Below, one piece after another: positions 7,888 through 50,321 of a DNA stretch of 52,270 nt; the stretch's first letter is position 1; each line of letters opens with the position of its first letter. Location: assembly GCA_937868685.1 (NCBI GenBank), contig CALMMZ010000181.1, positions 1 through 52,270 on the forward strand. Direction: 5' to 3'. The position numbers were made by a program, and so were the translations under genes. The DNA comes from an uncultured bacterium. Its GTDB lineage: Bacteria; Patescibacteriota; Minisyncoccia; Phycocordibacterales; UBA1006. The notes below the pieces were generated by a model. The model made no database searches, had not been told where the DNA came from, and worked only from the letters and a program-made list of their open reading frames with translations.

Positions 7888-7948
7888 CACTTTAACCCCT
7901 TGAAGGATGTTTAACCCCTTGAAGGATGTTTAACTTGAGTTAAACATC
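7888..7948. repeat. GTTTAAC-family repeat array (2.5 units) in a divergent intergenic region
   Basis: cactttaaccccttgaaggatg tttaaccccttgaaggatg tttaacttgagttaaacatc. The last unit forms a palindrome. Confidence 0.8.
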
Positions 7949-8933: not shown

Positions 8934-11912
8934 ATGTCACTCACTCCAGCAACCGGGTACATTTTTTCATGGTACGCCGAAGATGATGGTGTGATTCATG
9001 CGTTTGCAATGTCACCTGAAAATGAAACAATTCACCTAATTATTCTCAATTTTACTCGTTATTGTTATGTTGAACTTCCTGAAGATGTTGATTGGGACAA
9101 TGCCATTCATCAACGAAGTTTGCAATCGGCGATTGGTAATCTATCTATTGAAATTCATCCGAAACAAATGGTGGTGATGAAAAAACATCGATTATATCAA
9201 GCCCATGTTATCCCCACTGCCGAAGGATATCAACGAAAACTCTTTCCTTATCTCTTTGTTTGTTTTGATACACAAAAAGCCATGTTTGATTTTACACGTC
9301 GAATGACTTGGGGAATTTATGTCGATTCCCTCGGTCGAAAGTTAAATATGAAATGTCATGAACAAGATGCGTCTCCCTTTTTACAATTGTCTGTTTGTCG
9401 AGACATTCCTATCACAGGATGGGTTGACTTTCAAGGAGTTCGCCAATCGGATGACTGGAATAGTTCCTATTGTAAACATGAATATATTGTTGATTGGAGA
9501 ACTCTCACCTTGTCTAAAAATACTGCTTTGTTAAAAACTTTACCCAAGGTTCGTGTTCTCTCTTTTGATTGGGAAGCAAATTCTACCAATCACAACCGCA
9601 TGCCTAACGAAAAGAAACCAGGTGATGTGCTGTTCCAATGTTCAATGACCGTATTTGAACACGGTTCAGAAAAAATGGAATATCACTTATTAACTTTAGG
9701 CCAACCCGATCCGGCGATAGTTCAAGGTGAGAGAAAAGAGAAAGTACACATTCACAATTTTGCCAATGAAGCTGACATTTTAGAAGGTTTTGCTTCAATC
9801 GTTATTCAAATTGATCCACAAATTATTACCGGTTACAATATTATGGGGTGGGATTTTCATTATATGACCGCTCGAGCAAAATTGTTAAACGTATATCAAT
9901 CTTTTAGTCAATTTGGTTATTTGAAAGGATTTTCTGCAAAAGAGAAAACTATTTCTTGGTCAAGTTCAGCCTTTAGTAAACAAAACTTTTCTTATCCTGA
10001 TGTTCCAGGAAGAATTATTATTGATATGTTACCAGTTGTTAAAAGAGATTTTAAAATGTCGAGTTACAGTTTGAGTTCAGTATCAGCTGAATTGTTGGGA
10101 GCCAATCAAACAAAGGATCCATTGACACCGCAAGGAATCTTTAAATGTTATAAGATTCACAGCCCAGAAACTCTAGGAGTTGTTGGAAAATATTGCTTAA
10201 AAGATTCAGAAGTAACTGCCTATCTTTTTATCAAATTGAAGACTTGGGTAGGTAGTTGTCAAATGTCTGCTACAATGGGTGTGCCAATTTTTGCTCTTTC
10301 TACTCAAGGTCAACAAGTCAAGATTTACGCTCAAATCTATCGTGACTGTTTCTTGAAAAATACAGTCGTGGAAAAGAATGGTTATGTGTGTGGAAAAGAT
10401 GAATCTTACACTGGTGCGATTGTACTCGATCCGATTCCTGGATTGCATGAAAATGTGGTTACTTTCGATTTTGCCAGTTTATATCCTTCAACTATTATTG
10501 AAAAGAATATTTGTTATTCAACTTGGGTCACTGATGAGAAAATTCCTGATATTGATTGCCATGTTCTCGAATGGGAAGATCATATTAACTGTCCCCATGA
10601 TACAGTCAAAAGAACTGACAAAAAGAAAGTCTTTTGTTGCAAACGGCGTTATCGCTTTCTCCGAAAACCATTGGGTATTTTGCCCAGTATTTTGACTCGG
10701 TTAACCGCAGAAAGAAAGAAGGTGAAGAAAGAACTTGAATCAGTCGAACTCAAAGCCAAGGAAGAAAAAGATACTCTGTTAAAGAAAGAGTATAATATGT
10801 ACGCCACTATTCTCGATTTAACTCAATTAGCCATCAAATTAGTTTCAAATAGTATGTATGGTGTAATGGGTGTTCGAGAAGGTCGTCTACCTTTTATGCC
10901 GGGAGCAATGTCAACAACAGCCGGAGGTCGTGCCGCCATTATGAAAGCCAAAAGTATCATTTTAGAAAAGTTTCCTGGAAAAGTAATCTACGGTGATACC
11001 GATTCGCTGATGTATATTTTCGACAACACCAAAGACTTCTTGAAACCATCTCCAGATGGTAAAGAGAGTAAAATGGATTACGAGGAATTTGAGAAGTTTT
11101 GTCATCTCGTTTCTGAAACGATCTCCTCTCAATTTGAAAAGCCGATGAAACTAGAATTCGAAAACATTGCCGAACTCTTTTTCCTTTTGACTAAAAAGAG
11201 ATATATTTCCAAATTGACTAATGGTAAAGTTAAAAAACGTGGTATTATGTTAAGTCGTCGTGACAATGCGGCTTGTTGTCGAAGTGTATATGAAGGATTA
11301 CTGAAACATATCTTTGCTAAAAGTAGCTTAAACACTGTATTGGAATATATTGTTGAAGCAATGAATAAAATTTATTCTTACAGTTTTCCCAGCAAGGATT
11401 ATGCCATTACTAAAAGTATCAAAGATGTTAGTGATTACAAGGTGAAACCTCTAGATCTCGATCCAACAAAAAGACAAAAGCAATTAGCCAATAAATTCCT
11501 TCCTTACGTCGATCCTCATAACAAAGAAATGACAGATCGAATTGAGGCGGAATATAAACTTCGTTGTTTGCCGGCTCATGTTCAATTGGCAGAAACCATG
11601 CGTTCTCGAGGAAATATTGTTGAATCGGGTAGTCGCTTTGCCTTTGTAGTAACTACTAAAGGTGGACCAGTCGCAAAAATGTGGCAAAAGATTGAAAGTT
11701 TGGAATATTATACTCGACATCAAGGTTTAATTACGTTGGACACTAATTATTATGGAAAGGCTTTGATTAATCCGTTTGATGAGGTATTGGAGGTTCAATT
11801 TCATCTTTCAGGCTTTGTGAAAAAGCAACACAAACTTCGTTTGCAAAAATATATGATGTTGCAAGAATTGAAACAACTTCTTCGCCCTCAACTCGTGGCT
11901 TGGACAATTTAA
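8934..11912 (+). CDS. family-B DNA polymerase
   Basis: 992 aa. Exonuclease motifs: LSFDWEAN (ExoI), YNIMGWDFHY (ExoII), YCLKDSEV (ExoIII). Polymerase motifs: DFASLYPS (A), KLVSNSMYGVMG (B), VIYGDTDS (C). No intein-like insertion. Confidence 0.95.
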   Translation: MSLTPATGYIFSWYAEDDGVIHAFAMSPENETIHLIILNFTRYCYVELPEDVDWDNAIHQRSLQSAIGNLSIEIHPKQMVVMKKHRLYQAHVIPTAEGYQRKLFPYLFVCFDTQKAMFDFTRRMTWGIYVDSLGRKLNMKCHEQDASPFLQLSVCRDIPITGWVDFQGVRQSDDWNSSYCKHEYIVDWRTLTLSKNTALLKTLPKVRVLSFDWEANSTNHNRMPNEKKPGDVLFQCSMTVFEHGSEKMEYHLLTLGQPDPAIVQGERKEKVHIHNFANEADILEGFASIVIQIDPQIITGYNIMGWDFHYMTARAKLLNVYQSFSQFGYLKGFSAKEKTISWSSSAFSKQNFSYPDVPGRIIIDMLPVVKRDFKMSSYSLSSVSAELLGANQTKDPLTPQGIFKCYKIHSPETLGVVGKYCLKDSEVTAYLFIKLKTWVGSCQMSATMGVPIFALSTQGQQVKIYAQIYRDCFLKNTVVEKNGYVCGKDESYTGAIVLDPIPGLHENVVTFDFASLYPSTIIEKNICYSTWVTDEKIPDIDCHVLEWEDHINCPHDTVKRTDKKKVFCCKRRYRFLRKPLGILPSILTRLTAERKKVKKELESVELKAKEEKDTLLKKEYNMYATILDLTQLAIKLVSNSMYGVMGVREGRLPFMPGAMSTTAGGRAAIMKAKSIILEKFPGKVIYGDTDSLMYIFDNTKDFLKPSPDGKESKMDYEEFEKFCHLVSETISSQFEKPMKLEFENIAELFFLLTKKRYISKLTNGKVKKRGIMLSRRDNAACCRSVYEGLLKHIFAKSSLNTVLEYIVEAMNKIYSYSFPSKDYAITKSIKDVSDYKVKPLDLDPTKRQKQLANKFLPYVDPHNKEMTDRIEAEYKLRCLPAHVQLAETMRSRGNIVESGSRFAFVVTTKGGPVAKMWQKIESLEYYTRHQGLITLDTNYYGKALINPFDEVLEVQFHLSGFVKKQHKLRLQKYMMLQELKQLLRPQLVAWTI

Positions 11913-13501: not shown

Positions 13502-15148
13502 ATGTCGCTTTACGAAGTCAAATTCAAAGGAGAACAAAAAGGTCCATGGATCCCTTTTCGTGGAGAAGCTACTGAAGTTATTGAGTCGGGATTTCGCGTG
13601 TTAAACAAACCAGTTTTGTTATATGAACATGCTTATGTCGGAGAAAAGATTAATCCAAATGACAAAACTTTTCCAGATGAATTTATAGTACAATTATTTT
13701 ATAACTATGATCAACAGAGTTTTATTCGTAATAAGAATTTACTCCGCATGCTAGAGAAGATGTCACAAAATTTATCTGCCGAAGGATTTTTCAGCATGGC
13801 ATCGATTCCTTTTGCTTATCGATTTTATCCTAGTCCTCGTTCTTTTAACAAACAAACGAACACAAGTTATGCACTCATGAGATCACCCCCTGTTTGGAAG
13901 CATATTCTCGATACTTCAACTTCTCGTTTTCATTGGTTTATGTTTAATGCGTTGTCAGCTCTTTTTTATCTCCATAAATTGGGTATTGTACATCGTGCTA
14001 TTTCACCAGAAACTGTCTATTTTTCAAAGGATAATAATGACTATTCACCTTCTATTTTTATTCACGATTTTAGCTCGGCTTGCTGGTTAGAAGATCAAAC
14101 TGATCTCACTCAAATTGTAAGATGTCGTGAATCACCTCCAATGTATGATTATACTGATCCTGTTTTATTGCCAAAATCAAGACAATTATTGCAACAACAA
14201 CGAGATAAAAATAAAAGTAAGATCTCTTCCGAAGAAGAAAAGAAAATTCGTGATGACATGGATGGTCTCAAGAAGAAAATGGCCGAGTTAAATAAAGAAA
14301 TCAACGACGCAAAAGGAAATGATCGTACTCGTCTAGAAGGACAGCGAAAAGAACTAAGAAAAAGATTGGGCGAACTTGGGGGAAAATTACACGGTCGTCC
14401 AGGAGAAGGAGAACGAATGTCACAAGCAGTGTACGCTCCTTACACTGATAAATCTGATGTATTTTCAATGGGGATGTTATTTTATCAAATTGCAACTCAA
14501 GGCATCGGTTATACCAATGAAGCGCTCGATCCTTGGGATCCAACCAGAGAAAATACTATTAGTATGCCTCCAGATCAAATTGAAGTTTTTAACGCGCGTA
14601 AACAGCGTTTAACTCGTACAAATCTTTCGCCATTGTTGCGAGATATCATTTTGGGGATGATTCAACCTGAACATAAAGATCGCTTGGATGCTGGTATGGC
14701 TTTAAAGAAATTAATTTCTGCACACAATCCTGAGATGCAGATTCCCGATTTACCACCTTTTACCTCGGGAGCACCACAAAAAGAAATTCTACAATATCTT
14801 GGTTCGCGAGAATATCCCGAATTACAAGGAGCAAATATTAATACTCTGGCTAAAATGATGACGCAAAAATGGGCTGATGTTGACGCAAAAATTGACCATC
14901 AAGATCCAGCTAGTGAATTTTATGGATCATTCCGAGAAAGTAGGTTAAATCCCTCTCCTCCACCAGCTGAATTTTGGGCTTACTGCGTTGGTAAAGGTTT
15001 GTGTTACACAGCTGCGGTGGGAATTCCTCTTGTGGTTGGTGGTTTAAATCCAGTTGCTGCGGGTGTTGGATTGGCGACCGCCGGACTTGGAGCCGCCGGT
15101 GTACACAATCGATTGTTGCAAAAGATATCGGAGCGATGGAGACGGTAA
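13502..15148 (+). CDS. protein-kinase-like protein, probable pseudokinase, with a coiled-coil insert and a Gly-rich C-terminal hydrophobic segment
   Basis: 548 aa. LHKLGIVHRAISPETVYF (HRD replaced by HRA), IHDFSSA (DFG-like), SDVFSMGMLFYQI (subdomain IX-like). Charged insert KISSEEEKKIRDDMDGLKKKMAELNKEINDAKG. C-terminal GIPLVVGGLNPVAAGVGLATAGLGAAGV. Confidence 0.6.
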   Translation: MSLYEVKFKGEQKGPWIPFRGEATEVIESGFRVLNKPVLLYEHAYVGEKINPNDKTFPDEFIVQLFYNYDQQSFIRNKNLLRMLEKMSQNLSAEGFFSMASIPFAYRFYPSPRSFNKQTNTSYALMRSPPVWKHILDTSTSRFHWFMFNALSALFYLHKLGIVHRAISPETVYFSKDNNDYSPSIFIHDFSSACWLEDQTDLTQIVRCRESPPMYDYTDPVLLPKSRQLLQQQRDKNKSKISSEEEKKIRDDMDGLKKKMAELNKEINDAKGNDRTRLEGQRKELRKRLGELGGKLHGRPGEGERMSQAVYAPYTDKSDVFSMGMLFYQIATQGIGYTNEALDPWDPTRENTISMPPDQIEVFNARKQRLTRTNLSPLLRDIILGMIQPEHKDRLDAGMALKKLISAHNPEMQIPDLPPFTSGAPQKEILQYLGSREYPELQGANINTLAKMMTQKWADVDAKIDHQDPASEFYGSFRESRLNPSPPPAEFWAYCVGKGLCYTAAVGIPLVVGGLNPVAAGVGLATAGLGAAGVHNRLLQKISERWRR

Positions 15149-18054: not shown

Positions 18055-19482
18055 ATGTCAAAAACTCTTGAATGGTTATATTCACTTGAACCAAAAAGAC
18101 AAAAAAGACCTTCAACTCCAGAAAGAAAAATATTTTTATTGAAATATATTGCAACTACTGATCGTAATAATCTTTGTTCTTTCTTTCATGTGCTTGATGT
18201 CTTAGATATGTATGGTGTATGGAATCAGGAGAGCTTAAACATGGCACAATACCTTGTCGCTCAATACTATTTTATAGATAATGGTATGAAAGTTTCAGAA
18301 GAAAAGAGTGCTCACTTTTTTGTTAAATTAGCTTGTTCGTTGCACTTTCCTTCATTTTTTTACTATATTACCTTGCTGAGCAAGCAAAAAAAGTGTCATA
18401 AAGATGAAATTGATACATACTTTAATGTAGCACTATTGTTAATGTTATCAAATGATTATTACAAATATTCGAACTATCAGTTGATCCAAAGTGTTTTTCT
18501 TTTATTTGAAAAGAAAGAAGGGCCTGTATCATTAAAGAAGATTTTTTCAGATATTCTACTTCAGGCTGAAGGGCAGTTCCCAACTGAGATGTTAATTCTT
18601 TGTCGAAAAGTACAACAAAACTTTATGACATTGACTGAACAACCACTTGAAGAAGTTAAGTATATTGACTTAGTTTGTCCACAACGAATTTATTCTTTCG
18701 ATCAAAAAGATTTCCCTTTTTCACTCAACTCTTTACGACTTGGTGTTGGTGTATTAGGAACAGTTTATCAAGATAAAAACGGAAATGCTGTTAAGAGATG
18801 TAAATGGGAATACAAATCGGATGTTATGAGTGAAACATCGTTAGTTCGTTTTTTGGATCATCCCAATTTAATTCAACATTATTGTGTTTCTGTTCACAAC
18901 ATGGTACATCTTCGCTTTCATATTGAAATGCCCCGTTTTCCATTTAATTTAAATGATAAGTTTAATGAGATACGTGGTAATTCAAAAATTATTAAACCTA
19001 TTATTGCACAGGTACTAAAAGCTTTATTGTATCTTCACGAGCGCTCGATCCTCCACCGAGATGTTAAATTATCAAATATATTGTTTGATGAAAAATATCA
19101 CGCCGTTTTGTGTGATTTCTCTTTGGCTAAATTTTCTCCAATTCAAGAGAAGGCCGAAAGACTTGTACAAACTTATGAGTATCGAGCTCCTGAAGTATAC
19201 ACCAATAAAATCTCCACCGACAAGATGGATATTTGGTCGGTGGGAAGTGTATTAATTCATCTTTATTCGTCAGCCCGGTTTATACAACATTTAAAAGGAA
19301 TCAATTCAATTGGTGAAAGAGAATGGGGCATCATGATTCGAAAAGAAGATTGGTGGGAACCATTGGTTGAAATCCAAGATCTCTTGTTGAAAGATTTAAT
19401 TCGACAGATGGTCAAACAAGATCCCTCCCAACGTTATTCAGCACATGAGTGTTTACAACATGAATACTTTTACAAGAAATAA
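18055..19482 (+). CDS. Ser/Thr protein kinase with a ~220-aa N-terminal helical (cyclin-like?) domain
   Basis: 475 aa. GVGVLGTVY (G-loop), AVKRCK, LHERSILHRDVKLSNILF (HRD...N), LCDFSLAK, TYEYRAPEV, DIWSVGSVL. The N-terminal TPERKIFLLKYI motif is shared with ORFs 28919 and 30877. Confidence 0.8.
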   Translation: MSKTLEWLYSLEPKRQKRPSTPERKIFLLKYIATTDRNNLCSFFHVLDVLDMYGVWNQESLNMAQYLVAQYYFIDNGMKVSEEKSAHFFVKLACSLHFPSFFYYITLLSKQKKCHKDEIDTYFNVALLLMLSNDYYKYSNYQLIQSVFLLFEKKEGPVSLKKIFSDILLQAEGQFPTEMLILCRKVQQNFMTLTEQPLEEVKYIDLVCPQRIYSFDQKDFPFSLNSLRLGVGVLGTVYQDKNGNAVKRCKWEYKSDVMSETSLVRFLDHPNLIQHYCVSVHNMVHLRFHIEMPRFPFNLNDKFNEIRGNSKIIKPIIAQVLKALLYLHERSILHRDVKLSNILFDEKYHAVLCDFSLAKFSPIQEKAERLVQTYEYRAPEVYTNKISTDKMDIWSVGSVLIHLYSSARFIQHLKGINSIGEREWGIMIRKEDWWEPLVEIQDLLLKDLIRQMVKQDPSQRYSAHECLQHEYFYKK

Positions 19483-24337: not shown

Positions 24338-24379
24338 CAAAGAATTTTAATTGTCTTGAATTATATTGAGAAAATAAAT

Positions 24380-24387
24380 TCAATTTT
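24380..24387 (-). promoter_or_regulatory. AAAATTGA early-promoter-like motif
   Basis: TCAATTTT overlaps the kinesin stop codon. Lies upstream of minus-strand ATG 24337. Confidence 0.5.
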
Positions 24388-26872
24388 CATTTTGAATTGG
24401 AGTTACAATATTTCTTTCCACAACAGGTGTTTTCAAAATGCGTAATTGTGATTCCAAATCTTTAATCTTTTTCTCATAATCAAGTTGACGTCGTTTAAAG
24501 TCACTCGTTACTTCTTGTAGCTTATTGTTATTATTTCGTAAATGATCTTCTAGAGTCTTGATATGTCTTGAACGACCTTCCAATTGAGCTTTCAATTCTT
24601 CTTCTACAATAGCCAATTGAGAATATTTGTCATGTAAACGATGTAATTCTTCTTTTGTTTGAGTATCTTCTTCAGTTGTTTTCCATGTTTTTAACATATT
24701 TTCACGTAAGGTATTATTTTCTTCACACAAGGAAGCTACTTTTCCTCTCAACCCTCCATTCTCTTCCTCCAAAGTTAATGACCTTTGATTAGCAAATTTA
24801 ATGGCTTGATCGGCAGTCTCTTCTTTTTCTTTCAAACTAGACTGAGATTGTTCCAATTCTTTTTCTAAAGTATAAATTCGTTCTTGAATTATGGTTTGAT
24901 TTTGTCGCAAGTTCTCGATTTCCAGTATCTTTTGTCCTAAATCATCCTGGCAATGACGTAAATCATCTTGATATTTATTTGCTTCTGAACGAACTTTTTC
25001 GATTTCAGATTTAACCACGCTAATACCTTTTTGTAATTCAGTGACTAAAGCAGTCTTACTGTCAAGTTCTTCGGCCAATTTTTGGAATTGATCCAATGAT
25101 TCTTCATAATTGGCCGGTGTTAAAGTTGGTTGGACAATGAGATTATATTCTTTCTTGAAATCTTTGACATCAATCCCTTTTTTCTCACAAATGTCAATCA
25201 GACGATTTAAATCGCTGGTCAATGCAGAAATAATGATTTGTTGTGTTGCTAATTTTTCATTTGCCTCGTAAAGCAATCGTTTATATTCTTCAATATTCAT
25301 TTCTAAATTCACCACTGGTTTATTGAGAATAGTTTGTGTAATTGCCCCAAATCTTAGTGTCGACAAGGTTTCTTCATAATTAAATTTAGCTGGTGAACAG
25401 GTGATCACAAGATGAGTTTTACTATTCCCACCCAATGAATCAGTCAAGAGCCGTGTCAACTTTGAATCGCGATAAGGAATAAAAGGTTTCTTTTCAGCCA
25501 AACAGCGAATAACAATACCTAATGTTAATAGAGATTTATTGGTGGCATTGGCCTGCTTGAGTAATAAACCTTCGGCTTTGGTCTTGGCAATTTTTTCTGA
25601 ACCAGCCAAATCGACAAAGACAATACGAGATGTAATCTTTTTTCCTGTTTTCACATCAGTTTGTTGTACGTGCATCACTAAGATTGAATGACTCCGAGAA
25701 GAATGAGCATTTAAAGCGGTTGCGGCGACTGTTCGATTTAATTCACCTTTTCGCATAATTCGGACAGCATCTTCAAAACAATTGACATAAGTCTCGGTTA
25801 CTTCTTCAATCCACAATCCACGAAAGCGATCTTCACGAATTTTAAGATCATCTCTCAAGGGTGCTAATAAATCGCGAATTTTTTCTAAATAAATTTCCAC
25901 ATAAGACATACTTACAAGAAATTCATATCCTTTTTTGTTGCGAATTGCGGTAAAGAGATCTTTAATCAAACGGGGTACCACTCCCATTTCACTTTCTGTT
26001 TTCCATAATTCACCTTCTTGAGAAAGAAGATCGGCATTGTCGACTGCTGCCGCATAACCGGTCATGGTAGTTGTTTTACCTGAATTATGAGTCACAACTC
26101 CATCTGCAAGTAAAAACCTCGCAGGACATCCTTCAATCGGTTTTAATTGAAAACCAGCATATAATCCCATACTCAATTCCTCAAATTGAATGGGGTAGAC
26201 GATCAATTGTTTTTTATGTTGTCTGACACCAAGATATCCACGTGGATTCTTTAAGACTTCTTTCAAGGGGATATCCACAATTTTACCTTGTAATGATAAA
26301 GTTAGAACGTGATCAAGATTGACTGTATAAAAACTTTTACTTTCAGTGTCAATTACTTTGTACATATGAGAAATACCAGTATATAATTTGATTACTTCAC
26401 GAAGATTTCCTTGATCATCTAGTAATTTGTCTTCGATTTTGATATCTCTGGCTTGAATCGGTGAACCATCAGCCAGCATCACTAAAGTATCAGGAGATAA
26501 ACAAGCCGATTGACCGTAAGCGAAAATAGTGGCATTGTACCCTTGAAGAATCTCATGAATTAAGGGTTTTCCCACTGCAGTGTATACTTGTTCCTGAGTC
26601 GCTTTCTCATCAAAGACTTTATCATAGAAATATTTATTTTCTTTGGTTTCTTGTGGGAGATGTACAACATTTCCTTCCAAACGAATCATTCGAGTTGCAC
26701 CATTTTTCAATTCTGTTTCATTACAAGGTCGAAAACGACAAAAAACTTTGACATTTTTGTCTTCAACCGAGGTTTGCTTATCGGGGAGTTTTTCTTTCTC
26801 ACCTTTTGGTTCTCGTGGCGAAAGAACTTTATTTTTTCCCTTCATAAAAAAGAGATTTTCTTTTCTTAACAT
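24380..26872 (-). CDS. kinesin-like motor protein (N-terminal motor, C-terminal coiled coil) interrupted by a mini-intein
   Basis: 830 aa. VKVFCRFRP, IFAYGQSA[140-aa insert]SGKTTTM (P-loop), NAHSSRSHS (switch I), VDLAGSEK (switch II), YRDSKLTRLL. Residues from about 540 onward are heptad-rich (Glu/Leu/Lys/Gln). Confidence 0.9.
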   Translation of the reverse strand: MLRKENLFFMKGKNKVLSPREPKGEKEKLPDKQTSVEDKNVKVFCRFRPCNETELKNGATRMIRLEGNVVHLPQETKENKYFYDKVFDEKATQEQVYTAVGKPLIHEILQGYNATIFAYGQSACLSPDTLVMLADGSPIQARDIKIEDKLLDDQGNLREVIKLYTGISHMYKVIDTESKSFYTVNLDHVLTLSLQGKIVDIPLKEVLKNPRGYLGVRQHKKQLIVYPIQFEELSMGLYAGFQLKPIEGCPARFLLADGVVTHNSGKTTTMTGYAAAVDNADLLSQEGELWKTESEMGVVPRLIKDLFTAIRNKKGYEFLVSMSYVEIYLEKIRDLLAPLRDDLKIREDRFRGLWIEEVTETYVNCFEDAVRIMRKGELNRTVAATALNAHSSRSHSILVMHVQQTDVKTGKKITSRIVFVDLAGSEKIAKTKAEGLLLKQANATNKSLLTLGIVIRCLAEKKPFIPYRDSKLTRLLTDSLGGNSKTHLVITCSPAKFNYEETLSTLRFGAITQTILNKPVVNLEMNIEEYKRLLYEANEKLATQQIIISALTSDLNRLIDICEKKGIDVKDFKKEYNLIVQPTLTPANYEESLDQFQKLAEELDSKTALVTELQKGISVVKSEIEKVRSEANKYQDDLRHCQDDLGQKILEIENLRQNQTIIQERIYTLEKELEQSQSSLKEKEETADQAIKFANQRSLTLEEENGGLRGKVASLCEENNTLRENMLKTWKTTEEDTQTKEELHRLHDKYSQLAIVEEELKAQLEGRSRHIKTLEDHLRNNNNKLQEVTSDFKRRQLDYEKKIKDLESQLRILKTPVVERNIVTPIQNEN
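26084..26503 (-). mobile_element. mini-intein (140 aa, no homing-endonuclease domain) inside the kinesin P-loop
   Basis: Residues 124-263 of the kinesin ORF. Starts CLSPDTLVMLADGSPI (block-A-like, Cys1). Has NLDH (block-B-like). Ends FLLADGVVTHN, followed by Ser (+1). Removing it restores GQSASGKTTTM. Confidence 0.8.
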
Positions 26873-26895
26873 TTTGAAAAAAATAAAAGTTCTTC

Positions 26896-27306
26896 ATGGA
26901 ATTTCTCGAACGAAATCGAAATTTGGCCGATCAATCACGCTTTGCTGAGGCAATGCGAAAAATTCAACAAAAAAGTCTGGAAGAAAGACGGGCAGAATGT
27001 AAAAGAATTTTCGTCAAAAAGCCTTCTAATATTCCAGTAATCGTGATTCCCGCCAAAGGAATTCAACTCGACAAGTTGAAATACATTTGTGACAATGATA
27101 TGACGATAGAAAAATTAAACTATGTGATTGTCAGGCGAATTATTTCTTCTACACCAGTGCCTGAAAGAGCCTACTTTTTTATTACCGAGGATAAACAAAT
27201 TCCACCAACTGATATGTTAATTCGAGACCTCTATCGTAAACAAAAAAATGAAGATTTTACTCTCCATCTTTACTTAATTGGTGAAGATACTTTTGGTTGT
27301 GATTAA
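26896..27306 (+). CDS. Atg8/LC3/GABARAP-family ubiquitin-like protein
   Basis: 136 aa. Collinear with Atg8/GABARAP: SLEERRAECKRIFVKKPSNIPVIV (compare [23 protein letters not shown]), LDKLKYICDNDMTIEKLNYVIVRRI (compare [25 protein letters not shown]), AYFFITEDKQIPPTDMLIRDLYRKQKNEDFTLHLYLIGEDTFG-CD (compare [42 protein letters not shown]). Confidence 0.85.
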   Translation: MEFLERNRNLADQSRFAEAMRKIQQKSLEERRAECKRIFVKKPSNIPVIVIPAKGIQLDKLKYICDNDMTIEKLNYVIVRRIISSTPVPERAYFFITEDKQIPPTDMLIRDLYRKQKNEDFTLHLYLIGEDTFGCD

Positions 27307-27328: not shown

Positions 27329-28108
27329 ATGAACATTCAAGCAGTCTGGCAAGATTTTCAAAACAACAACGACCGTTATCGTCAATTGTTAAATAAATTT
27401 GAAATTAATATTCCCCCCGATGTGAAGTCTCTCGAATCGTTTCGCCAATGGGTGGCAGTTGATCCTATGCCTCCATCAGAAAAAAGATTTAAAGTTTTAA
27501 CTCAACCCGAAGATGAAAAATCCTTAATTCCTCGAGCAACTGCTCGTGTAAATGAAATTCAAGAAGCAACCAAGCGAAGAGCTTTTGACGATGGTTTATA
27601 TTTGGATTATGGCTGTAGTGATGGAAAAATGACTCTTGAAATTGCAAAAAAGTTAAACATTCCGTACAACAACGTATACGGAGTTGATAAAGCTGAATTC
27701 ACTGGAGTTGAAATTAAACCAGTCCTTGATAAAGCTAATTTTATACTACTTGATCGAGAAAGTGGTGTACTCCCTTTTGGTAATGAGAGATTTGATCTGA
27801 TTTCAGCTTTTCAAGTCTTACATCATATTCGAAATCCTGAACCAGTAATCAGAGATCTCGTTCGCATTTTGAAGAAGGATGGCATTTTTCTGTTACGCGA
27901 GCATGATGCGCAACCAGAAGATCATCGTTTAATTGATTTTGAACATTTGATTTATCCTCATTCCAACATCGAGACCAATTACATTGGTAATTATCATTCT
28001 TCCGTCGAATGGGATGCTTGGTTGATTAAAGCAGGTTTAATTCCAATCGGATTTACCTTTACAAAAGGACAAACCTTTTATTATATGAAAGCTTACACTA
28101 AAAAATAA
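27329..28108 (+). CDS. class-I SAM-dependent methyltransferase
   Basis: ATG 27329. Motif I YLDYGCSDGKMT, and FDLISAFQVLHHIRNPEPVIRDLVRILKKDGIFLL (Methyltransf_11-like). Confidence 0.7.
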   Translation: MNIQAVWQDFQNNNDRYRQLLNKFEINIPPDVKSLESFRQWVAVDPMPPSEKRFKVLTQPEDEKSLIPRATARVNEIQEATKRRAFDDGLYLDYGCSDGKMTLEIAKKLNIPYNNVYGVDKAEFTGVEIKPVLDKANFILLDRESGVLPFGNERFDLISAFQVLHHIRNPEPVIRDLVRILKKDGIFLLREHDAQPEDHRLIDFEHLIYPHSNIETNYIGNYHSSVEWDAWLIKAGLIPIGFTFTKGQTFYYMKAYTKK

Positions 28109-28918: not shown

Positions 28919-30319
28919 ATGGACCGAGATGATGCTTTTTTGTCAAAAGCTTTACAGCGAAACATAAAACGGAGATATTTGTTTCCTCCCAAAGTGCCAC
29001 CTGTTTTTACATCTCGTGAAGAACGAATAACATATATTTTAGAAATTTATGGTTATATGACATTGCGAAAAAACGATTTTCCCTACGCCGCTGCAATTCA
29101 ATCTATCTGCTACAGCGATACTTTACCTTCAATTGACCGTGAGCTTCTCTTTGGATGTATTGGAATGGGCATTTGTTTGGAAGAAGCTTCGTTGGATGAT
29201 TGTTATTTATATGAAATTTTCTTGGCATCAGGCCATTCCTTCGACGAAGAGGGTAATGAAAAATTTCGTTTGACCCTTAAAGCTATTGATCAATTTCCCA
29301 ACATCTATCTTGAAACACCAGATCGAATGTTATCCCTGTTTTGGAAGGATTATCTTTCACTTGAAATGTATCAAAAAATTTTACTTCATTTATGCCATCA
29401 TCCCTTTGAGGGGAAGAAAACTGCACTTCCCTTCTTACAAGAACGGGAGATTCAACCTTTTCTTTCCTTTGAAAAAATTGTAGAAAAAAAGATACCACGT
29501 TGGAAATTTCTCCCTCATCAAGAAGACGACAGTCTTTATCAAGGTGCTCATTCACAAACTAGAAGATGGGTCTCAGCAGAAGATCCCGAAACTTACATTG
29601 TCAAAACTTATGGTAATCAACTTGAAATGGAGGCGGGCATTCGAGAACTTTATTCTTTAACTATTTTTGATCATCCAAATATTGTCAAGTGTCATGGTTG
29701 GTCTATTTCCGAGGATTTTACTCAAATTCAATTTTTCTTGGAAGATGGTGGAGAAGAAATTGATTGTCGTTACACCACTTTAAAATGGTTGAAGAAATAT
29801 ACACCTCAGATTTTAAGAGCTCTCCGTCATATTCACACTCGAGGATTTGCTTACCGTGATTTGAAAACTCCCAATCTTGTCTTTCGTCGTGGTAAAATTA
29901 CATTAATCGATTTTGGCATGGTTCGTCGAACAAATTGTGTTGGTGGAAGTCCTTACATGATGTCTTTTGCAATTGGACCCGCGGAAATCTTTGCAGGAAG
30001 TTGCATTTATTGGGGAGCAGTTGATATCTGGTCATTGGGTATGTTACTTTATGTTTTAACACAAAAGAAGTATCCACTTGGAGTAAAAGGAATGGCCTCT
30101 TATCGGGGAAAATATTTATATACTAAAGCTTTTCTTGAACAATTAACACCAGAAGAAGAACTTGAATTTAAGCAGATGAAGAAAAATAATACATCTTTAA
30201 TAATTGACGGAAAAGTGTCTGATATTCAAAATCAAAAATTAAGAGCTTTGATTAAACGATGTTTTTCCGCCAGAGCACCTTCGGCAGGTGAATTATTGCA
30301 AGATCCTTTCTTTGAATAA
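28919..30319 (+). CDS. cyclin-box-like N-terminal domain fused to a Ser/Thr protein kinase
   Basis: 466 aa. N-terminal SREERITYILEIYGYM ... FRLTLKAIDQFPNIYLETPDRMLSLFW (cyclin-box-like L-x-F-x-L-x-x-P-T-P-x-x-F-L pattern). Kinase motifs: IHTRGFAYRDLKTPNLVF, LIDFGMVRR, VDIWSLGMLLYVL. Confidence 0.75.
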   Translation: MDRDDAFLSKALQRNIKRRYLFPPKVPPVFTSREERITYILEIYGYMTLRKNDFPYAAAIQSICYSDTLPSIDRELLFGCIGMGICLEEASLDDCYLYEIFLASGHSFDEEGNEKFRLTLKAIDQFPNIYLETPDRMLSLFWKDYLSLEMYQKILLHLCHHPFEGKKTALPFLQEREIQPFLSFEKIVEKKIPRWKFLPHQEDDSLYQGAHSQTRRWVSAEDPETYIVKTYGNQLEMEAGIRELYSLTIFDHPNIVKCHGWSISEDFTQIQFFLEDGGEEIDCRYTTLKWLKKYTPQILRALRHIHTRGFAYRDLKTPNLVFRRGKITLIDFGMVRRTNCVGGSPYMMSFAIGPAEIFAGSCIYWGAVDIWSLGMLLYVLTQKKYPLGVKGMASYRGKYLYTKAFLEQLTPEEELEFKQMKKNNTSLIIDGKVSDIQNQKLRALIKRCFSARAPSAGELLQDPFFE

Positions 30320-30338: not shown

Positions 30339-30830
30339 TTAAGCATTTCGAAGTTGATTTAGAAGAGATACAGTAATGGGAGGATGATTTTTCTTTTCGG
30401 CAAAGGCTAAAATATCCTTTCTTCTTTGTTCAAATTGTTCAAGTTTATAAGAAGTATATTTTGCATCGAGAAAGTTATCCAGAAAGTCTGCCACTTTAAT
30501 CATAAAACCATAAACTGACAAAGATTCCAATTTTATTTTCATATATTCAATCTTATTCAGTTGGTTTATTTTTGATTGATCATTTGTTAACTCCTTGACT
30601 AATAAGGAAATTTGTTGATTAAAAGTTTCTTCTAATTCTTCTGGAGTGGTTTTCGTATCTTCCAAAGTATCATGAAGTAAAGCTGCCGCTAAAATGTCTT
30701 CATTTTGCATTCCATGTTGACGAAGTAAACTAGCAACTGAACAACAGTGGACAATATAAGGCAAATGTGTAACTTTACGCTGTTGATCTTTATGTTTGTG
30801 GAGAATAAATGTAAGAGCTTTGGTGAACAT
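30339..30830 (-). CDS. MESH1/SpoT-type HD-domain hydrolase ((p)ppGpp hydrolase-like)
   Basis: ATG 30830. ALTFILHKHKDQQRKVTHLPYIVHCCSVASLL ... ILAAALLHDTLEDTKTTPEELEETF ... LVKELTND is collinear with MESH1 AADFAARKHRQQRRK..PYINHPIGVARIL...AALLHDTVEDTDTT...LVEEVTDD. H-D-x-x-E-D signature present. Confidence 0.8.
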   Translation of the reverse strand: MFTKALTFILHKHKDQQRKVTHLPYIVHCCSVASLLRQHGMQNEDILAAALLHDTLEDTKTTPEELEETFNQQISLLVKELTNDQSKINQLNKIEYMKIKLESLSVYGFMIKVADFLDNFLDAKYTSYKLEQFEQRRKDILAFAEKKNHPPITVSLLNQLRNA

Positions 30831-30867
30831 AAAAATGATTTTACTTTTTGGAAGAAAACTGTTAGAA

Positions 30868-30875
30868 TCAATTTT
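30868..30875 (-). promoter_or_regulatory. AAAATTGA early-promoter-like motif
   Basis: TCAATTTT in the 46-bp divergent spacer. Lies upstream of minus-strand ATG 30830. Confidence 0.5.
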
Positions 30876-30876
30876 T

Positions 30877-32241
30877 ATGGAGTCACACTTCTTTTCTTTC
30901 AAAAAAGAAACTCTGAGTCCTCCAGAAAGGACCGAGGGTATTGAGTATATTCTCAAGGTCTGCGATGAATACAAAATGAATGTTTATACATCTTTGATGG
31001 CTATTGAATTTTTTGACCTTCTTTCATTCAAAATGAAAGAAAAAGATACTGTTCCCTTTGTTTGTGTTTACTTAGCTTTTCTCTTTCGTGGCTCTGAAAA
31101 TCAAAACTTTTTAAATGGTCCAGAGTGTATCAAATATGAAGAAGAATTGTCTTCTTTGTGTTTTGAAGTAGTAGCTTCATTCAAAGGACCTATTTTTAGA
31201 CCTACTGCAATGAGATGTTTATCACTCTTCTTACAAAGAAATTGTACTTCCTTTGAAGAGAATATGATCCTGCTAGGTTATTTGAAACAAAAAGTTACTT
31301 CTTGTCAAGAGATCTGTGAACTCGTCTCTCCCCTCTTACCCGAAGAAAAGAGAGTATCATTTTCCACTTTTGTAGAAAATGAAATAAAACAAACTTCCTC
31401 GAAACCCTTTTACCGGAAATACAGTCCAGGAAAAAGAATTTGTTGTCTAGGTGAAGGGGCTCATGCGAAAGTTTATTGTTGTTTGGAAGATGAAACAACT
31501 AAAATATACACTGCTGTCAAAGTCTATAACATTGGTGAGGGAGAAGAATTGAACGCACTTCGAGAAATTGCGTTGTTAAGTTCGGTATCTCATCCTTCAA
31601 TTGTGCCATTTTTTGGTTGGAGTTTTGAACCGAAAGATCAAAAAGTTTACCTTTATTTGGGACAGGGATATAGGGTGCCTCCTCATGATCTCTCTGAAAA
31701 ATGGATTCAACAATATGGTTATGAAATATTGCAAGCGATTGATTATCTTCATCAAAGAGGATTTGTCCATCGCGATTTAAAACGAACGAATGTAGTTTAT
31801 TCAGATGACAAAAAGCATGTCTGGTTGATTGATTTTGGTATTTCTCGTGAAGAACAAGCTCATGGAATGAGTGCAAAAATGGCCCCTCAAATTTTAATGC
31901 CTCCTGAAATGATTGAAAATTTAGATTATGATGCCTCGATTGATATTTGGCAACTCGGGCTCTTTTTTGCCGGAAGTATTACCAAAGACGAATCTTTTCC
32001 CTCGGCATTGACTGATACAGATTTAACTTATCAATTGTTTTATTTTAAAAACAATCTTTTGATTCACGAAAATTCTTACCGACCTACATATCGACTCTCC
32101 AATATTGTCAATCCTACTTTGAGAGACTTTATTGCTCGTTGTCTTACCGATTATTACCTTCAAAGACCAAAAAGTCATGAATTACTTTCACATCCTTTCT
32201 TTAAAAGTTCGATTCCAGAAAGATCTCTCAAAGACATTTAA
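30877..32241 (+). CDS. cyclin-box-like N-terminal domain fused to a Ser/Thr protein kinase
   Basis: ATG 30877 avoids most of the overlap with the divergent HD gene. N-terminal PPERTEGIEYILKVCDEYKMNVYTSLMAIEFFDLLSF ... EEELSSLCFEVVASFKGPIFRPTAMRCLSLFL (cyclin-box-like). Kinase motifs: LGEGAHAKVY, AVKVY, LHQRGFVHRDLKRTNVVY, LIDFGISRE, IDIWQLGLFF. Confidence 0.8.
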   Translation: MESHFFSFKKETLSPPERTEGIEYILKVCDEYKMNVYTSLMAIEFFDLLSFKMKEKDTVPFVCVYLAFLFRGSENQNFLNGPECIKYEEELSSLCFEVVASFKGPIFRPTAMRCLSLFLQRNCTSFEENMILLGYLKQKVTSCQEICELVSPLLPEEKRVSFSTFVENEIKQTSSKPFYRKYSPGKRICCLGEGAHAKVYCCLEDETTKIYTAVKVYNIGEGEELNALREIALLSSVSHPSIVPFFGWSFEPKDQKVYLYLGQGYRVPPHDLSEKWIQQYGYEILQAIDYLHQRGFVHRDLKRTNVVYSDDKKHVWLIDFGISREEQAHGMSAKMAPQILMPPEMIENLDYDASIDIWQLGLFFAGSITKDESFPSALTDTDLTYQLFYFKNNLLIHENSYRPTYRLSNIVNPTLRDFIARCLTDYYLQRPKSHELLSHPFFKSSIPERSLKDI

Positions 32242-33349: not shown

Positions 33350-33377
33350 TTGGAGAGAAAATATTTTGGTAATAGAA

Positions 33378-33959
33378 ATGAGCAGACTCGTGAGATTTCC
33401 CTCTGTTTTTAATTCAGGGGTAAATCCAAATATACATTTTTTAATTCCTTCAACGGGGCCAACAGGAACTATTGGAAGTACAGGACCAACAGGAGCTAAT
33501 GGAAGTACAGGACCAACGGGACCTGGATTTACTGGGTCTGAAACAGTTCAAGTTGTTGATGTAGGAACAGATCCAAAATGGACCGGAAGTACAGTAATGA
33601 CAAATGATAATTTGGCAGGTACAATGGAAAGAAGATATATTACATTAGCAGCCGGGGGAAATGGTTATATTCAATATAATTTTGGACCAATTTCCACCGG
33701 ATATTATAACGTTAAATTTCATTTGAACAGAGCCAGTAATCAACCAAGCTTAACTGTTTCTGAAGTGACAACTTCGACAACATTGTTAACAATTCCTTTT
33801 ACACATTTGTCAAATTATCTTGGAATATATGAAACTGGTATATTCCGTTGGTTAAATCCTGGAGATTTAATTATTCGCTGGGCAGGAACCTCAACTTCAA
33901 CCGGAAATAATTTTATTATTGTGGTAAACAATATGCAACTGTTAAGATATCTTCATTAA
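33378..33959 (+). CDS. collagen-like triple-helix-repeat protein
   Basis: ATG 33378. GPTGTIGSTGPTGANGSTGPTGPG (eight G-x-y triplets) followed by a ~130-aa beta-rich C-terminal domain. Confidence 0.6.
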   Translation: MSRLVRFPSVFNSGVNPNIHFLIPSTGPTGTIGSTGPTGANGSTGPTGPGFTGSETVQVVDVGTDPKWTGSTVMTNDNLAGTMERRYITLAAGGNGYIQYNFGPISTGYYNVKFHLNRASNQPSLTVSEVTTSTTLLTIPFTHLSNYLGIYETGIFRWLNPGDLIIRWAGTSTSTGNNFIIVVNNMQLLRYLH

Positions 33960-41658: not shown

Positions 41659-41746
41659 TTTAACCAGTGAGGAGAACGTTTAAACAATTTTGACTTTTTA
41701 TTAAACGTCCTTTCGGGGTTAAACGTCCTTTCGGGGTTAAACGTCT
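41659..41746. repeat. GTTTAAC-family repeat array, mixed orientation, in a divergent intergenic region
   Basis: tttaaccagtgaggagaacgtttaaac, then on the opposite strand ttaaacgtcctttcgggg ttaaacgtcctttcgggg ttaaacgtc. Confidence 0.8.
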
Positions 41747-41762: not shown

Positions 41763-42677
41763 ATGAAGAAGTTAACCCGGCAGGATTTAATTGAACGGCT
41801 TCGAAGTGTTGGGTATACATCACTTTCACGCCTTCGAAAAGATGAATTGGAAGACATGTACAAGAAGATTGAACAAAATATAAAACGAGAGGAGAGTAAA
41901 CTTTCTTCAGAAGAAACAAAAGTCTCTTTTCGAGAACCTCTTGAAAGTGTGAAAATATCCATTCCTGCTTCATTACGGGAATCAACATCTTCGAAAAATG
42001 TGGTTGAAAAGAAAAAACCTCCGACTATTTATTATGAAGAAGAATTTGAGAAACTTCGGTTTGATGGAATTTCAAAATATGTCAAACTTTCACAGTTAGG
42101 TCAATCGGGAAAGGAAGGAACTACATATTTAGTCATGGATCCAGCTTATGCAGGCAAAAGATATGCTATGAAATGTTTTCGTAAAACAAAATCGGAAAAT
42201 CGTATTGCCGAGGAGGCCCATTATCAATGGTTAGTAGCGAAATATGGTATTGCCCCGCAAGTCTATCAATTTAATACAAAAGAAAAGTACATTTTGATGG
42301 AACCTTTGGATCAAACCTTGTTAAGTATTTTGACAGAAAATAAAGGTATTTTTCCCAAGAAACTTCAACAAGAAGTTATCGAACTTTACAAAAAGCTCGA
42401 TGAAACGGGAATTGCTGTCAACGATGGAAATCCAAGAAACATCATGGAGAAAAATGGAAAGTTGTATATGATTGATTATGGGCTGGCCAAAATGGCCTCT
42501 TCCCCTTCTTTCCGGAAATTGAAAACTCCTAATTTGTCTCTTCTTCCAAATGCTTTATTATATTATGTTAAAGAGAGGTTTGATACAACAAGTTGGGTAG
42601 AAATTCGTCAACATGTACCACCCGAATCTCTCCAACATTATGATAAGATTTATCGAATGAAGAATCCAAAAAAATGA
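41763..42677 (+). CDS. small atypical protein kinase with an N-terminal SAP/HeH-like motif
   Basis: 304 aa. LTRQDLIERLRSVGYTSLSRLRKDELEDMY (SAP/HeH-like). GQSGKEGTTYLV, YAMKCF, GIAVNDGNPRNIM, YMIDYGLAK. Confidence 0.65.
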   Translation: MKKLTRQDLIERLRSVGYTSLSRLRKDELEDMYKKIEQNIKREESKLSSEETKVSFREPLESVKISIPASLRESTSSKNVVEKKKPPTIYYEEEFEKLRFDGISKYVKLSQLGQSGKEGTTYLVMDPAYAGKRYAMKCFRKTKSENRIAEEAHYQWLVAKYGIAPQVYQFNTKEKYILMEPLDQTLLSILTENKGIFPKKLQQEVIELYKKLDETGIAVNDGNPRNIMEKNGKLYMIDYGLAKMASSPSFRKLKTPNLSLLPNALLYYVKERFDTTSWVEIRQHVPPESLQHYDKIYRMKNPKK

Positions 42678-43692: not shown

Positions 43693-44829
43693 TTACGTAA
43701 TCTTCAATCCAAACCGAGCGGCAAACAAATTTTCCAATTGTCGCTCTTCTTTGACCGGAAAGAATTTTCCTTTTTGAAAATAAACTAGCCATGTATATGC
43801 CTCTTGATATGACAATGTTCCAATCATTTGTTCAGGATAAAAGTTAACAATTAGCTCAGAGCGTAGGCGATAATCATTGGTGAGTTTACCAACCAAAGTT
43901 TTCATTTGTGTAGATAAAAAAGAGGGTAAAGAGTGAAGAACACCTTCTTGTTTTAAGCAAGCGTAATCAATCATCGCAACTTCAGGCGGAGCTGGACCAT
44001 CAAAACATAAGGCGAGATCAAAATCAATGATAGCAAATTCAGATCCCGAACGAACTAAATTTCGAATGTAGAGATCAAGATGGACAATTCCAATTTGATG
44101 GAGTTTTTCTACTAAAGTAAGAATCTTTTTCTGTTCTGCGGGAGAAAACTTTCTCGCTTGATCAAACGGAGTGCATTGAGTTAAAATAGCTATCCCATAT
44201 TGCTTCCTTCCAATTTGACAAACTTGATATCCGAGTAATTTAGCCCCGATACCAGCCTTGCCGGCTCGTTGTAACATGACCAATTCCCATTTGTAGGAGT
44301 TATATCCATGGTATGATAAATCGGTCATTTTAAAGACCACCTTCTTTCCAGCATACACTCCTTGAAAAACAGTTCCACTAGTTCCACCGCCAAGTTCTTC
44401 TCCCTGTCCAAAGGTTTCTAAACATTTGTCTAAATTGGCAAATTCTTGAACTTGCATTTTTTGTCCAATTTCTTGATAGTCTTGAAGAGGAGAAGTCAAC
44501 AATGCTTCCTCAGCTTCAACACAATTATTAACTGTAGAACTACCTCCAGTAATTAAACGGTGGAGAAGTTCTTGTAAAATTTCCTTTTTGGAGGTAAATT
44601 TAACTGGTGGAACGGCTTCTTTCGCGATTTGACGCAATTTGGGCAATTTCATGGCAGTTAATTGAAGAGCGGAAGGTCTTTGAAGAACTTTGTATCTTTT
44701 CAACAACCTTTCGCGAATTACTTCAATATTTTCTTCAGAAGAGTATTGAATCGGATAAGGTAATTGGTTATTAAGCTCGGAGAGCGAACGAAAAGTTTTC
44801 GCGCGTTTAATTTGTCCTTCAAGATCCAT
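43693..44829 (-). CDS. atypical protein kinase with an N-terminal SAP/HeH-like motif
   Basis: 378 aa. MKLPKLRQIAKEAVPPVKFTSKKEILQELLHRL (HeH-like). LGGGTSGTVFQG, VVFKM, GIVHLDLYIRNLV, IIDFDLA. Confidence 0.65.
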   Translation of the reverse strand: MDLEGQIKRAKTFRSLSELNNQLPYPIQYSSEENIEVIRERLLKRYKVLQRPSALQLTAMKLPKLRQIAKEAVPPVKFTSKKEILQELLHRLITGGSSTVNNCVEAEEALLTSPLQDYQEIGQKMQVQEFANLDKCLETFGQGEELGGGTSGTVFQGVYAGKKVVFKMTDLSYHGYNSYKWELVMLQRAGKAGIGAKLLGYQVCQIGRKQYGIAILTQCTPFDQARKFSPAEQKKILTLVEKLHQIGIVHLDLYIRNLVRSGSEFAIIDFDLALCFDGPAPPEVAMIDYACLKQEGVLHSLPSFLSTQMKTLVGKLTNDYRLRSELIVNFYPEQMIGTLSYQEAYTWLVYFQKGKFFPVKEERQLENLFAARFGLKIT

Positions 44830-50274: not shown

Positions 50275-50321
50275 ATATATTAAAAATGATTTTCTTTCTA
50301 GCATCTTTTTGGAAAAGAAAA

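Follow-up and report, generated by a model that had tools for sequence, protein, structure and literature searches.

A diverged giant-virus Atg8 homologue with a retained conjugation end and a partly remodelled docking surface

It has been reported that the giant virus PelV-1 encodes an Atg8, gene PelV1_394 (PMC12338748), and ATG8 is listed as a 'viral eukaryotic signature protein' in the preprint of Karki & Aylward (bioRxiv 10.1101/2023.07.11.548585), whose published version does not mention ATG8 in its main text. In addition, cytopathogenic pestiviruses carry inserts of LC3, GABARAP or GATE-16 (PMC13517609). A scan of IMG/VR with an alignment of canonical Atg8s recovered at least 258 Atg8-encoding stretches on viral contigs, mostly metagenome-assembled genomes (MAGs) of giant viruses, and no functional characterisation of any giant-virus Atg8 was found in the searched literature. 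The subject of this work is the Atg8-family gene at positions 26896-27306 of contig CALMMZ010000181.1, whose 52,270 nucleotides were analysed in full and are called the window below. A preliminary description of this gene implied that a virus-encoded Atg8 was new, which is overstated in view of the IMG/VR stretches, PelV-1 and the pestivirus inserts; the gene is a divergent, selectively maintained variant within the known and numerous class of giant-virus Atg8s, not a first. Its features are as follows.

26896-27306, + strand: complete Atg8-family gene, 136 codons plus TAA stop (27304-27306), ATG start; Pfam ATG8 match, E 2.5e-16
26896-26967, + strand: lineage-specific N-terminal extension, residues 1-24, predicted from orthologues and AlphaFold to lengthen helix alpha1
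26983-27297, + strand: Atg8 ubiquitin-like domain, residues 30-134, with a partly remodelled docking surface for LC3-interacting regions (LIRs), placed by Pfam envelope, Foldseek and residue mapping
27295-27303, + strand: putative processing and conjugation site, Gly134 (27295-27297) followed by Cys-Asp (27298-27303), in register with Gly116 of cellular Atg8

The giant-virus Atg8s of PelV-1, of Karki & Aylward and of IMG/VR resemble that of the window in being stand-alone proteins of about 115-145 aa with a C-terminal F/Y-G, and some of the IMG/VR proteins also share its short C-terminal tail and N-terminal extension. The 80 IMG/VR loci fetched gave 66 unique complete Atg8 open reading frames (ORFs), of which 37 end exactly at the Gly and would not need priming by ATG4, because the ORF stops at the conjugatable residue itself; the other 29 carry tails of 1-94 residues, and the 94-residue extension, found in loci L015/L016, is Cys-rich. 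These viral copies are near-canonical, with about 56% identity to yeast Atg8 on average, whereas the window Atg8 is 35% identical to yeast Atg8 and 33% identical on average (40% at most) to the IMG/VR copies. Typical IMG/VR copies keep R28, R65, F104 and Y106 (GABARAP numbering, used throughout), whereas the window protein replaces all four and needs removal of its tail. With cellular Atg8, GABARAP and GATE-16 (yeast Atg8, human GABARAPL2, plant ATG8f) it shares the two N-terminal helices and the beta-grasp, K46, K48 and Y49, most residues of docking pocket HP1, F77, the E-x-T-F-G motif and the Gly with a removable tail. It differs from them in its 17-20 extra N-terminal residues, in the replacements R28N, P52D, Q59K, R65V, F79I, F104T and Y106H, and in being virus-encoded with no Atg4, Atg7 or Atg3 gene nearby.

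Among the pestiviruses, bovine viral diarrhoea virus (BVDV) likewise has an Atg8-family sequence in a viral genome, and a BVDV polyprotein fragment is the fourth-best viral structural match of the window protein, at 34% identity. However, the BVDV insert is recent and nearly identical to the host protein and serves as a protease cleavage module inside an RNA-virus polyprotein, whereas the window Atg8 is an old, diverged, stand-alone gene with its own start and stop in a large DNA virus. Host ATG4B cuts after the Gly in the LC3- or GABARAP-bearing polyproteins of BVDV.

Family membership, fold and descent

The 136-aa ORF carries all peptides quoted in the preliminary description and ends in ...LIGEDTFG-CD-TAA; small ORFs that overlap 26896-27306 on both strands are unsupported and were treated as spurious. 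Residues 30-134 match the Pfam ATG8 profile (PF02991) over positions 1-104 of 104 with 60.2 bits, against a curated cut-off of 27 bits. A phmmer search of PDB sequences gave 111 chains at E<=0.01, the best at E 1e-15 to 1e-17, and the 60 chains among the matches listed are all Atg8, GABARAP, GABARAPL1/2, LGG-1 or plant ATG8; in the alignment, query residues 25-134 pair with GATE-16 residues 8-116. The AlphaFold2 model built with a 53-sequence alignment (mean predicted local distance difference test, pLDDT, 89.8; predicted template modelling score, pTM, 0.80) has helices at residues 2-25 and 28-41 followed by a beta-beta-alpha-beta-alpha-beta beta-grasp, while a run on the single sequence gave an unusable model (pLDDT 47). 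When the model was compared with the PDB by Foldseek, the best 50 matches listed were all Atg8, GABARAP or LC3, with target-normalised template modelling (TM) scores of 0.75-0.86 among free chains and a root-mean-square deviation (rmsd) of about 2 A. Because the full-length Pfam match, the PDB sequence matches and the Foldseek matches agree, the family assignment is secure: the ORF is real and belongs to the Atg8/GABARAP family, as the preliminary description had proposed from the letters alone, and the beta-grasp with two N-terminal helices that it expected is present in the model. Among predicted viral structures, the best matches are BFVD entries annotated as 'ubiquitin-like proteins' of Pithovirus sibericum and Marseilleviridae (W5S5B8, A0A481YW55, A0A481YU40 and D2XB42), with target-normalised TM of 0.70-0.90, rmsd of 1.6-2.4 A and identity of 17-28%. 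The likeness is one of fold, and amoeba-infecting giant viruses may thus hold Atg8-fold proteins that have gone unrecognised.

Within the family the protein stands far out. A HMMER scan of 1.84 billion representative proteins returned 1044 Atg8 homologues at E<=1e-3, none of them above 47% identity outside the query's own cluster; a word-indexed protein search with the window Atg8 recovered the query alone, and a scan of IMG/VR with it gave no match. Its mean identity to the family is 0.35, compared with a family median of 0.52, a divergence from canonical Atg8 on a par with that of LC3B. An identical copy is encoded by 19 contigs, the longest of 100 kb, which come from at least three sample sets, and its flanking genes are the same in every case.

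Two orthologues were reached by way of the downstream methyltransferase gene of the window, which has a 49%-identical homologue (P0288) at a syntenic locus (L102). This locus is a 24.6-kb contig of a related virus whose family B DNA polymerase (PolB) is 76% identical to that of the window, and it has the gene order of the window: an intein-containing kinesin (-), Atg8 (+), a methyltransferase (+), an alpha/beta-hydrolase (-) and a kinase (+). The second orthologue comes from the 223-kb record JACCDN011063176.1 (L104) and shares 91% identity with the first. Each has 144 aa, and identity to the window Atg8 is 55-59%. A first metagenome scan with a two-orthologue alignment gave no match. The ratio of nonsynonymous to synonymous substitution rates (dN/dS) between the two orthologues is 0.089 at dS 0.51, comparable with neighbouring genes, and 0.15-0.21 against the window copy; judged by these ratios, the Atg8 gene is under purifying selection.

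A neighbour-joining tree of 223 sequences (114 columns, 200 bootstraps) unites the three orthologues in 200 of 200 replicates, but places the clade beside different long branches from one replicate to the next, so that no sister appears in more than 21% of them. The phylogeny that had been suggested for finding the donor lineage therefore defines the clade and locates no donor. On the alignment, the window Atg8 is a member of a small, fast-evolving viral lineage of three. The nearest non-orthologues, P0009 and P0013, come from compact, intron-free contigs, one of them adjoining a topoisomerase IB gene, and are probably viral too. A recent transfer from host to virus was rejected, since the closest non-orthologue is at most 47% identical and the base composition of the gene equals that of the genome (GC content 0.350 and 0.349, respectively).

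Conjugation end, N-terminal extension and docking surface

The preliminary description pointed to a C-terminal Gly followed by two residues, and the alignments confirm it: F133-G134 is in register with F115-G116 of Atg8/GABARAP, Gly116 being the residue that is cleaved at and lipidated in cellular Atg8. In the 53-sequence alignment, the Gly134 column is the sole invariant column besides the start Met. Residues were further compared with 220 other Atg8s, comprising 149 representatives, 67 IMG/VR viral copies and four reference sequences, of which that of GABARAPL2 is borne out by its PDB alignment. In this set the Gly at position 116 is 99% conserved. At the conjugation end, the window copy retains F77, E112, T114, F115 and G116, with the E-x-T-F-G motif intact, while F79, at a position at least 90% conserved, is replaced by I. 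After the Gly, the window copy has only CD, and both orthologues have a 13-aa tail, FSF[SP]IQNEHPESL. All three copies would require proteolytic priming, because each has extra residues past the Gly. In each orthologue, the stretch that encodes this 13-residue tail runs into the beginning of the methyltransferase ORF.

At the other end, the extra stretch of roughly 17-20 aa is a trait of the lineage. In the HMMER scan, the alignments of all homologues outside the clade start only near query residue 24. The orthologues keep a motif ahead of the Pfam domain, RF[AS]EA[ML]xK[IL]xQKSLE, so that the extension is charged and conserved, and AlphaFold predicts a helix over residues 2-25 with pLDDT of 64-77. 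A start at Met20 (26953), which would make the extension an artefact of ORF calling, was rejected: the position of Met20 is Leu in the orthologues, the peptide upstream of it is conserved, and the L104 ORF begins at the equivalent upstream Met. On this comparison, Met1 is taken as the start and the extension is translated and conserved. The extension of about 20 aa noted earlier is thus real, but it is not unique to this protein, since several other viral Atg8 ORFs of the IMG/VR loci have N-terminal extensions of 10-30 aa.

Crystal structures of GABARAP with LIR peptides define pocket HP1 by E17, I21, P30, I32, K48, L50 and F104, pocket HP2 by Y49, V51, P52, L55, F60 and L63, and R28, K46 and Q59 as further docking residues (PMC10986958, from which the residue lists used here are taken). 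The window copy retains R14, E17, I21, K24, P26, P30, I32, D45, K46, K48, Y49, D54, T56, R67, A75, F77, P85, Y95, D102, L105, E112, T114, F115 and G116. Its changes at positions at least 90% conserved are R28N, L50I, V51C, P52D, Q59K, R65V, F79I, F104T and Y106H, and compared with cellular Atg8 it also has an insertion of 2-3 residues after helix alpha3. Within the docking site, E17, I21, P30, I32, K46, K48, Y49 and L63 (as V) are retained, L50I, V51C, L55M and F60L are conservative changes, and R28N, P52D, Q59K and F104T are radical ones. As a result, the aromatic pocket HP1 loses F104, the electrostatic contact of R28 is lost, and HP2 is conservatively altered except for P52D, a change confined to the window copy among the three. 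The conservation of the LIR pocket, which the preliminary description had left to be checked, is therefore partial: the core holds (E17, I21, P30, I32, K46, K48, Y49), whereas R28, P52, Q59 and F104 have changed radically.

Asn at 28, Val at 65, Thr at 104 and His at 106 are seen in none of the 220 other Atg8s, and the orthologues likewise lack the consensus residues, with S, T, S and H at these positions. Because all four consensus residues are absent from the orthologues too, the replacements of R28, R65, F104 and Y106 are best read as lineage traits under selection and not as noise. The L104 orthologue (L104:10001-10435, JACCDN011063176.1) has Cys at Y95, a position that is Tyr in 97% of the 220 Atg8s.

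Proposed role and competing explanations

The model we favour, at about an even chance and with a mechanism that we infer, is that the gene encodes a functional Atg8 that is lipidated by host machinery and used for viral membranes or for evasion of autophagy, with altered partner specificity. A precursor would be made in the infected cell, and host ATG4 would remove the residues past Gly134 (Cys-Asp in the window copy, a tail of 13 in both orthologues). Gly134 would then be joined to phosphatidylethanolamine (PE) on membranes by ATG7, ATG3 and ATG12-ATG5-ATG16 of the host. The viral tag would coat these membranes, yet engage a partner set unlike that of host Atg8, because the conjugation tail and docking core are retained while R28, Q59, R65, F104 and Y106 are replaced; contacts with membranes or partners could be altered further by the lengthened N-terminal helix. 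In this way, autophagosome-like membranes might be supplied or marked for virion or factory assembly, and host selective-autophagy receptors might be escaped. It has been reported that the giant virus EhV requires an autophagy-like process and that host Atg8-PE is packaged in its virions (PMC4233938), which fits the lipidation model. Autophagy membranes serve as a weapon against viruses, and at least one algal giant virus also uses them to build its virions. This gene amounts to a natural experiment in which the conjugation end was preserved while the partner-binding face was rebuilt and then held by selection. No new category is opened, as viral Atg8 is an established idea and its gene family and fold are equally well known. 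What makes the protein a good candidate for a first functional study of a viral Atg8 is its re-wired docking surface, together with the conserved extension at its N-terminus.

Several points weigh against this model. Its cleavage, lipidation and partners are all things that we infer from sequence. F79I, F104T and R28N may weaken ATG4 or LIR-type contacts instead of retargeting them, and the L104 orthologue carries Y95C at a position that is 97% conserved. No homologue of ATG4, ATG7 or ATG3 was found in the 52-kb window, so the scheme hinges wholly on host enzymes accepting a protein of about 35% identity to canonical Atg8. Pfam and profile annotation likewise found no capsid gene in the window, and the viral origin on which the model builds consequently rests on gene content, a promoter motif and relatives on giant-virus MAGs.

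The main alternative, tentative and well short of even odds, is a decoy or dominant-negative role in which the viral Atg8 ties up host ATG4, ATG7, ATG3 or LIR receptors and blocks antiviral xenophagy, with no supply of membrane. Retention of the C-terminal tail and ubiquitin-like core together with a partly degraded docking site (R28, F104, Q59, P52) would suit such a role, as would the fast divergence from the family (mean identity 0.35 against a median of 0.52) expected of an interface that antagonises the host. However, pure sequestration would not require the exact Gly and cleavable tail that both lineages have, and the best-studied algal giant virus requires autophagy and does not block it (PMC4233938). 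The decoy and the favoured model cannot be told apart from the letters alone; binding and lipidation behaviour would distinguish a private giant-virus Atg8 tagging system from a jamming of the host's.

Two further explanations involve the neighbourhood of the gene, which is as follows.

24380-26872, - strand: kinesin motor gene, head-to-head neighbour of Atg8, with a mini-intein in its P-loop (Pfam Kinesin, E 1.9e-95, and Hom_end_hint)
about 26084-26503, - strand: mini-intein of the kinesin, 140 aa (Pfam Hom_end_hint; boundaries GQS[AG]/C...HN/SGKT)
26846-26895, no strand: divergent AT-rich intergenic region between Atg8 and kinesin, 50 bp if the kinesin starts at Met10 and 23 bp from its first ATG
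27329-28108, + strand: SAM-dependent methyltransferase, downstream neighbour starting 22 bp past the Atg8 stop (Pfam Methyltransf_23/11/31)

One is a specialised form of the lipidation model and seems to us unlikely: a virus-specific Atg8 paralogue, lipidated by the host yet made orthogonal to host autophagy receptors by the replacement of R28, R65, F104 and Y106 and by the conserved N-terminal helix, would recruit viral partners, perhaps the kinesin. The virus factory would then receive Atg8-marked membranes by transport along microtubules and assemble virion membranes with them. The other, which we think quite improbable, places the protein outside autophagy as a trafficking adaptor that would move membranes or virions with the viral kinesin and microtubules, its extended N-terminus serving as the contact surface. 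LC3 and GABARAP were originally described as microtubule- and tubulin-associated proteins. The head-to-head pair with its very short intergenic region is kept across lineages whose PolB is 76% identical, and the N-terminal extension is conserved and charged; both points speak for an adaptor. Against this, none of 80 other Atg8 loci of viruses, which together span 1.3 Mb, has a kinesin within about 10 kb. This marks the pairing as lineage-specific, and synteny alone may account for it, the more so as the flanking genes on both sides are syntenic as well. Conserved LIR-like cores in the kinesin are uninformative, nearly all of them lying inside the folded motor, the intein or the coiled coil. 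The idea that kinesin and Atg8 form a general viral module was rejected on the same count of loci, and a scan of IMG/VR with the kinesin as query gave no match.

We strongly disfavour the view that the gene was captured from a host, has lost its function and is now decaying. It does have many substitutions at positions at least 90% conserved, and one orthologue carries Y95C. Yet the ORF is intact in three diverged genomes, a pseudogene was rejected on the dN/dS of 0.089, several samples yielded the identical protein (19 contigs in all), the copies have their derived residues in common and not at random, and the base composition is fully ameliorated.

Genomic setting of the gene

The viral nature of the window, asserted in the preliminary description, is upheld by a giant-virus-like gene set, a promoter motif and the relatives of its PolB. 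Coding sequence makes up about 87% of the window, its intergenic regions are short and nothing in it suggests introns; its genes include PolB, the small subunit of ribonucleotide reductase (RNR), FEN1/XPG, an Erv1/Alr thiol oxidase, a NUDIX hydrolase and HD and MazG-like hydrolases. Further features are given below.

8934-11912: family B DNA polymerase (PolB)
13502-15148, 18055-19482, 28919-30319, 30796-32241, 41763-42677 and 43693-44829: protein-kinase-like genes, at least six in all
33366-33959, + strand: ORF containing a 27-nt tandem repeat that codes for collagen-like triplets (Gly-Pro/Ser-Thr-Gly)
46534-48252, + strand: EsV-1-7 protein, 572 aa, with 8 cysteine-rich repeats (Pfam E 2.5e-106; 111-nt tandem array at 46780-47478)
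50286-51089, + strand: serine recombinase (resolvase), near the window end

Relatives of the window PolB lie on giant-virus MAG contigs in IMG/VR. The octamer AAAATTGA, the mimivirus-type early promoter, occurs 29 times in the window where 20.8 are expected, and of 50 genes, 12 have its AAAATTG core in the 60 nt upstream of them, whereas 1.35 would be expected to. This promoter motif of Mimiviridae points to an Imitervirales-type virus. From gene set, promoter motif and PolB relatives, the window would be placed with a mimivirus-like (Imitervirales-type) giant virus. The contrary explanation, a cellular contig (from a protist genome or an integrated element) whose Atg8 is a host gene, could appeal to the lack of a major capsid protein gene in the 52-kb window and to a closest relative within a very large whole-genome shotgun assembly, and is nonetheless hardly credible given the coding density of 87%, the lack of any sign of introns, the NCLDV-type (nucleocytoplasmic large DNA virus) genes for PolB, Erv1/Alr, RNR, FEN1, NUDIX and an EsV-1-7 repeat protein, PolB relatives on giant-virus MAG contigs, the enrichment of AAAATTGA upstream of genes, and contigs of up to 100 kb that recur in independent samples.

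Around the Atg8 gene, the positions of both kinesin and methyltransferase are conserved in the related virus. The kinesin start at Met10 is the probable one, judging by the N-termini of the orthologues. The AAAATTGA motif was not found in the intergenic region between Atg8 and kinesin of the window, and in the relative L102, AAAAATTGA precedes the Atg8 gene by about 70 nt. The kinesin orthologues of L102 and L104 have inteins of 152 and 159 aa, respectively, at the same site. The only kinesin inteins found in the literature are those of Anaeramoeba (PMC10710043), and a viral kinesin intein may be unreported. A further strain (L006:444-3523, SRR30545107) has an identical Atg8 and a 99%-identical kinesin, and carries about 3.2 kb extra relative to window positions 24340-24380. 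The extra stretch lies between the kinesin and a 234-aa gene, which in the window are direct neighbours, and holds three genes of 325, 265 and 399 aa with no Pfam hit on record; the difference is a strain-level insertion or deletion.

Elsewhere in the window, several of the six kinase-like genes have long N-terminal regions without a Pfam match, and the related virus lacks the 18055-19482 copy between its RNR and NUDIX genes. The serine recombinase gene may mark a mobile element. The sequence AAAA(A)TTGA stands upstream of start codons, for instance at 2638, 16875, 19498, 20041, 32241, 38234 and 46500, and GC-cored palindromes with flanking A/T runs, like the hairpin terminators of mimivirus, recur in the intergenic regions. 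Two intergenic tandem repeats with related units and 100% matches are found at 7891-7934 and 41701-41745 (TTTAACCCCTTGAAGGATG x2.3 and TTAAACGTCCTTTCGGGG x2.5, respectively); a GGGGTTAAAC-like core is common to them when they are read on opposite strands, and the intergenic regions that contain them are divergent or promoter-side.

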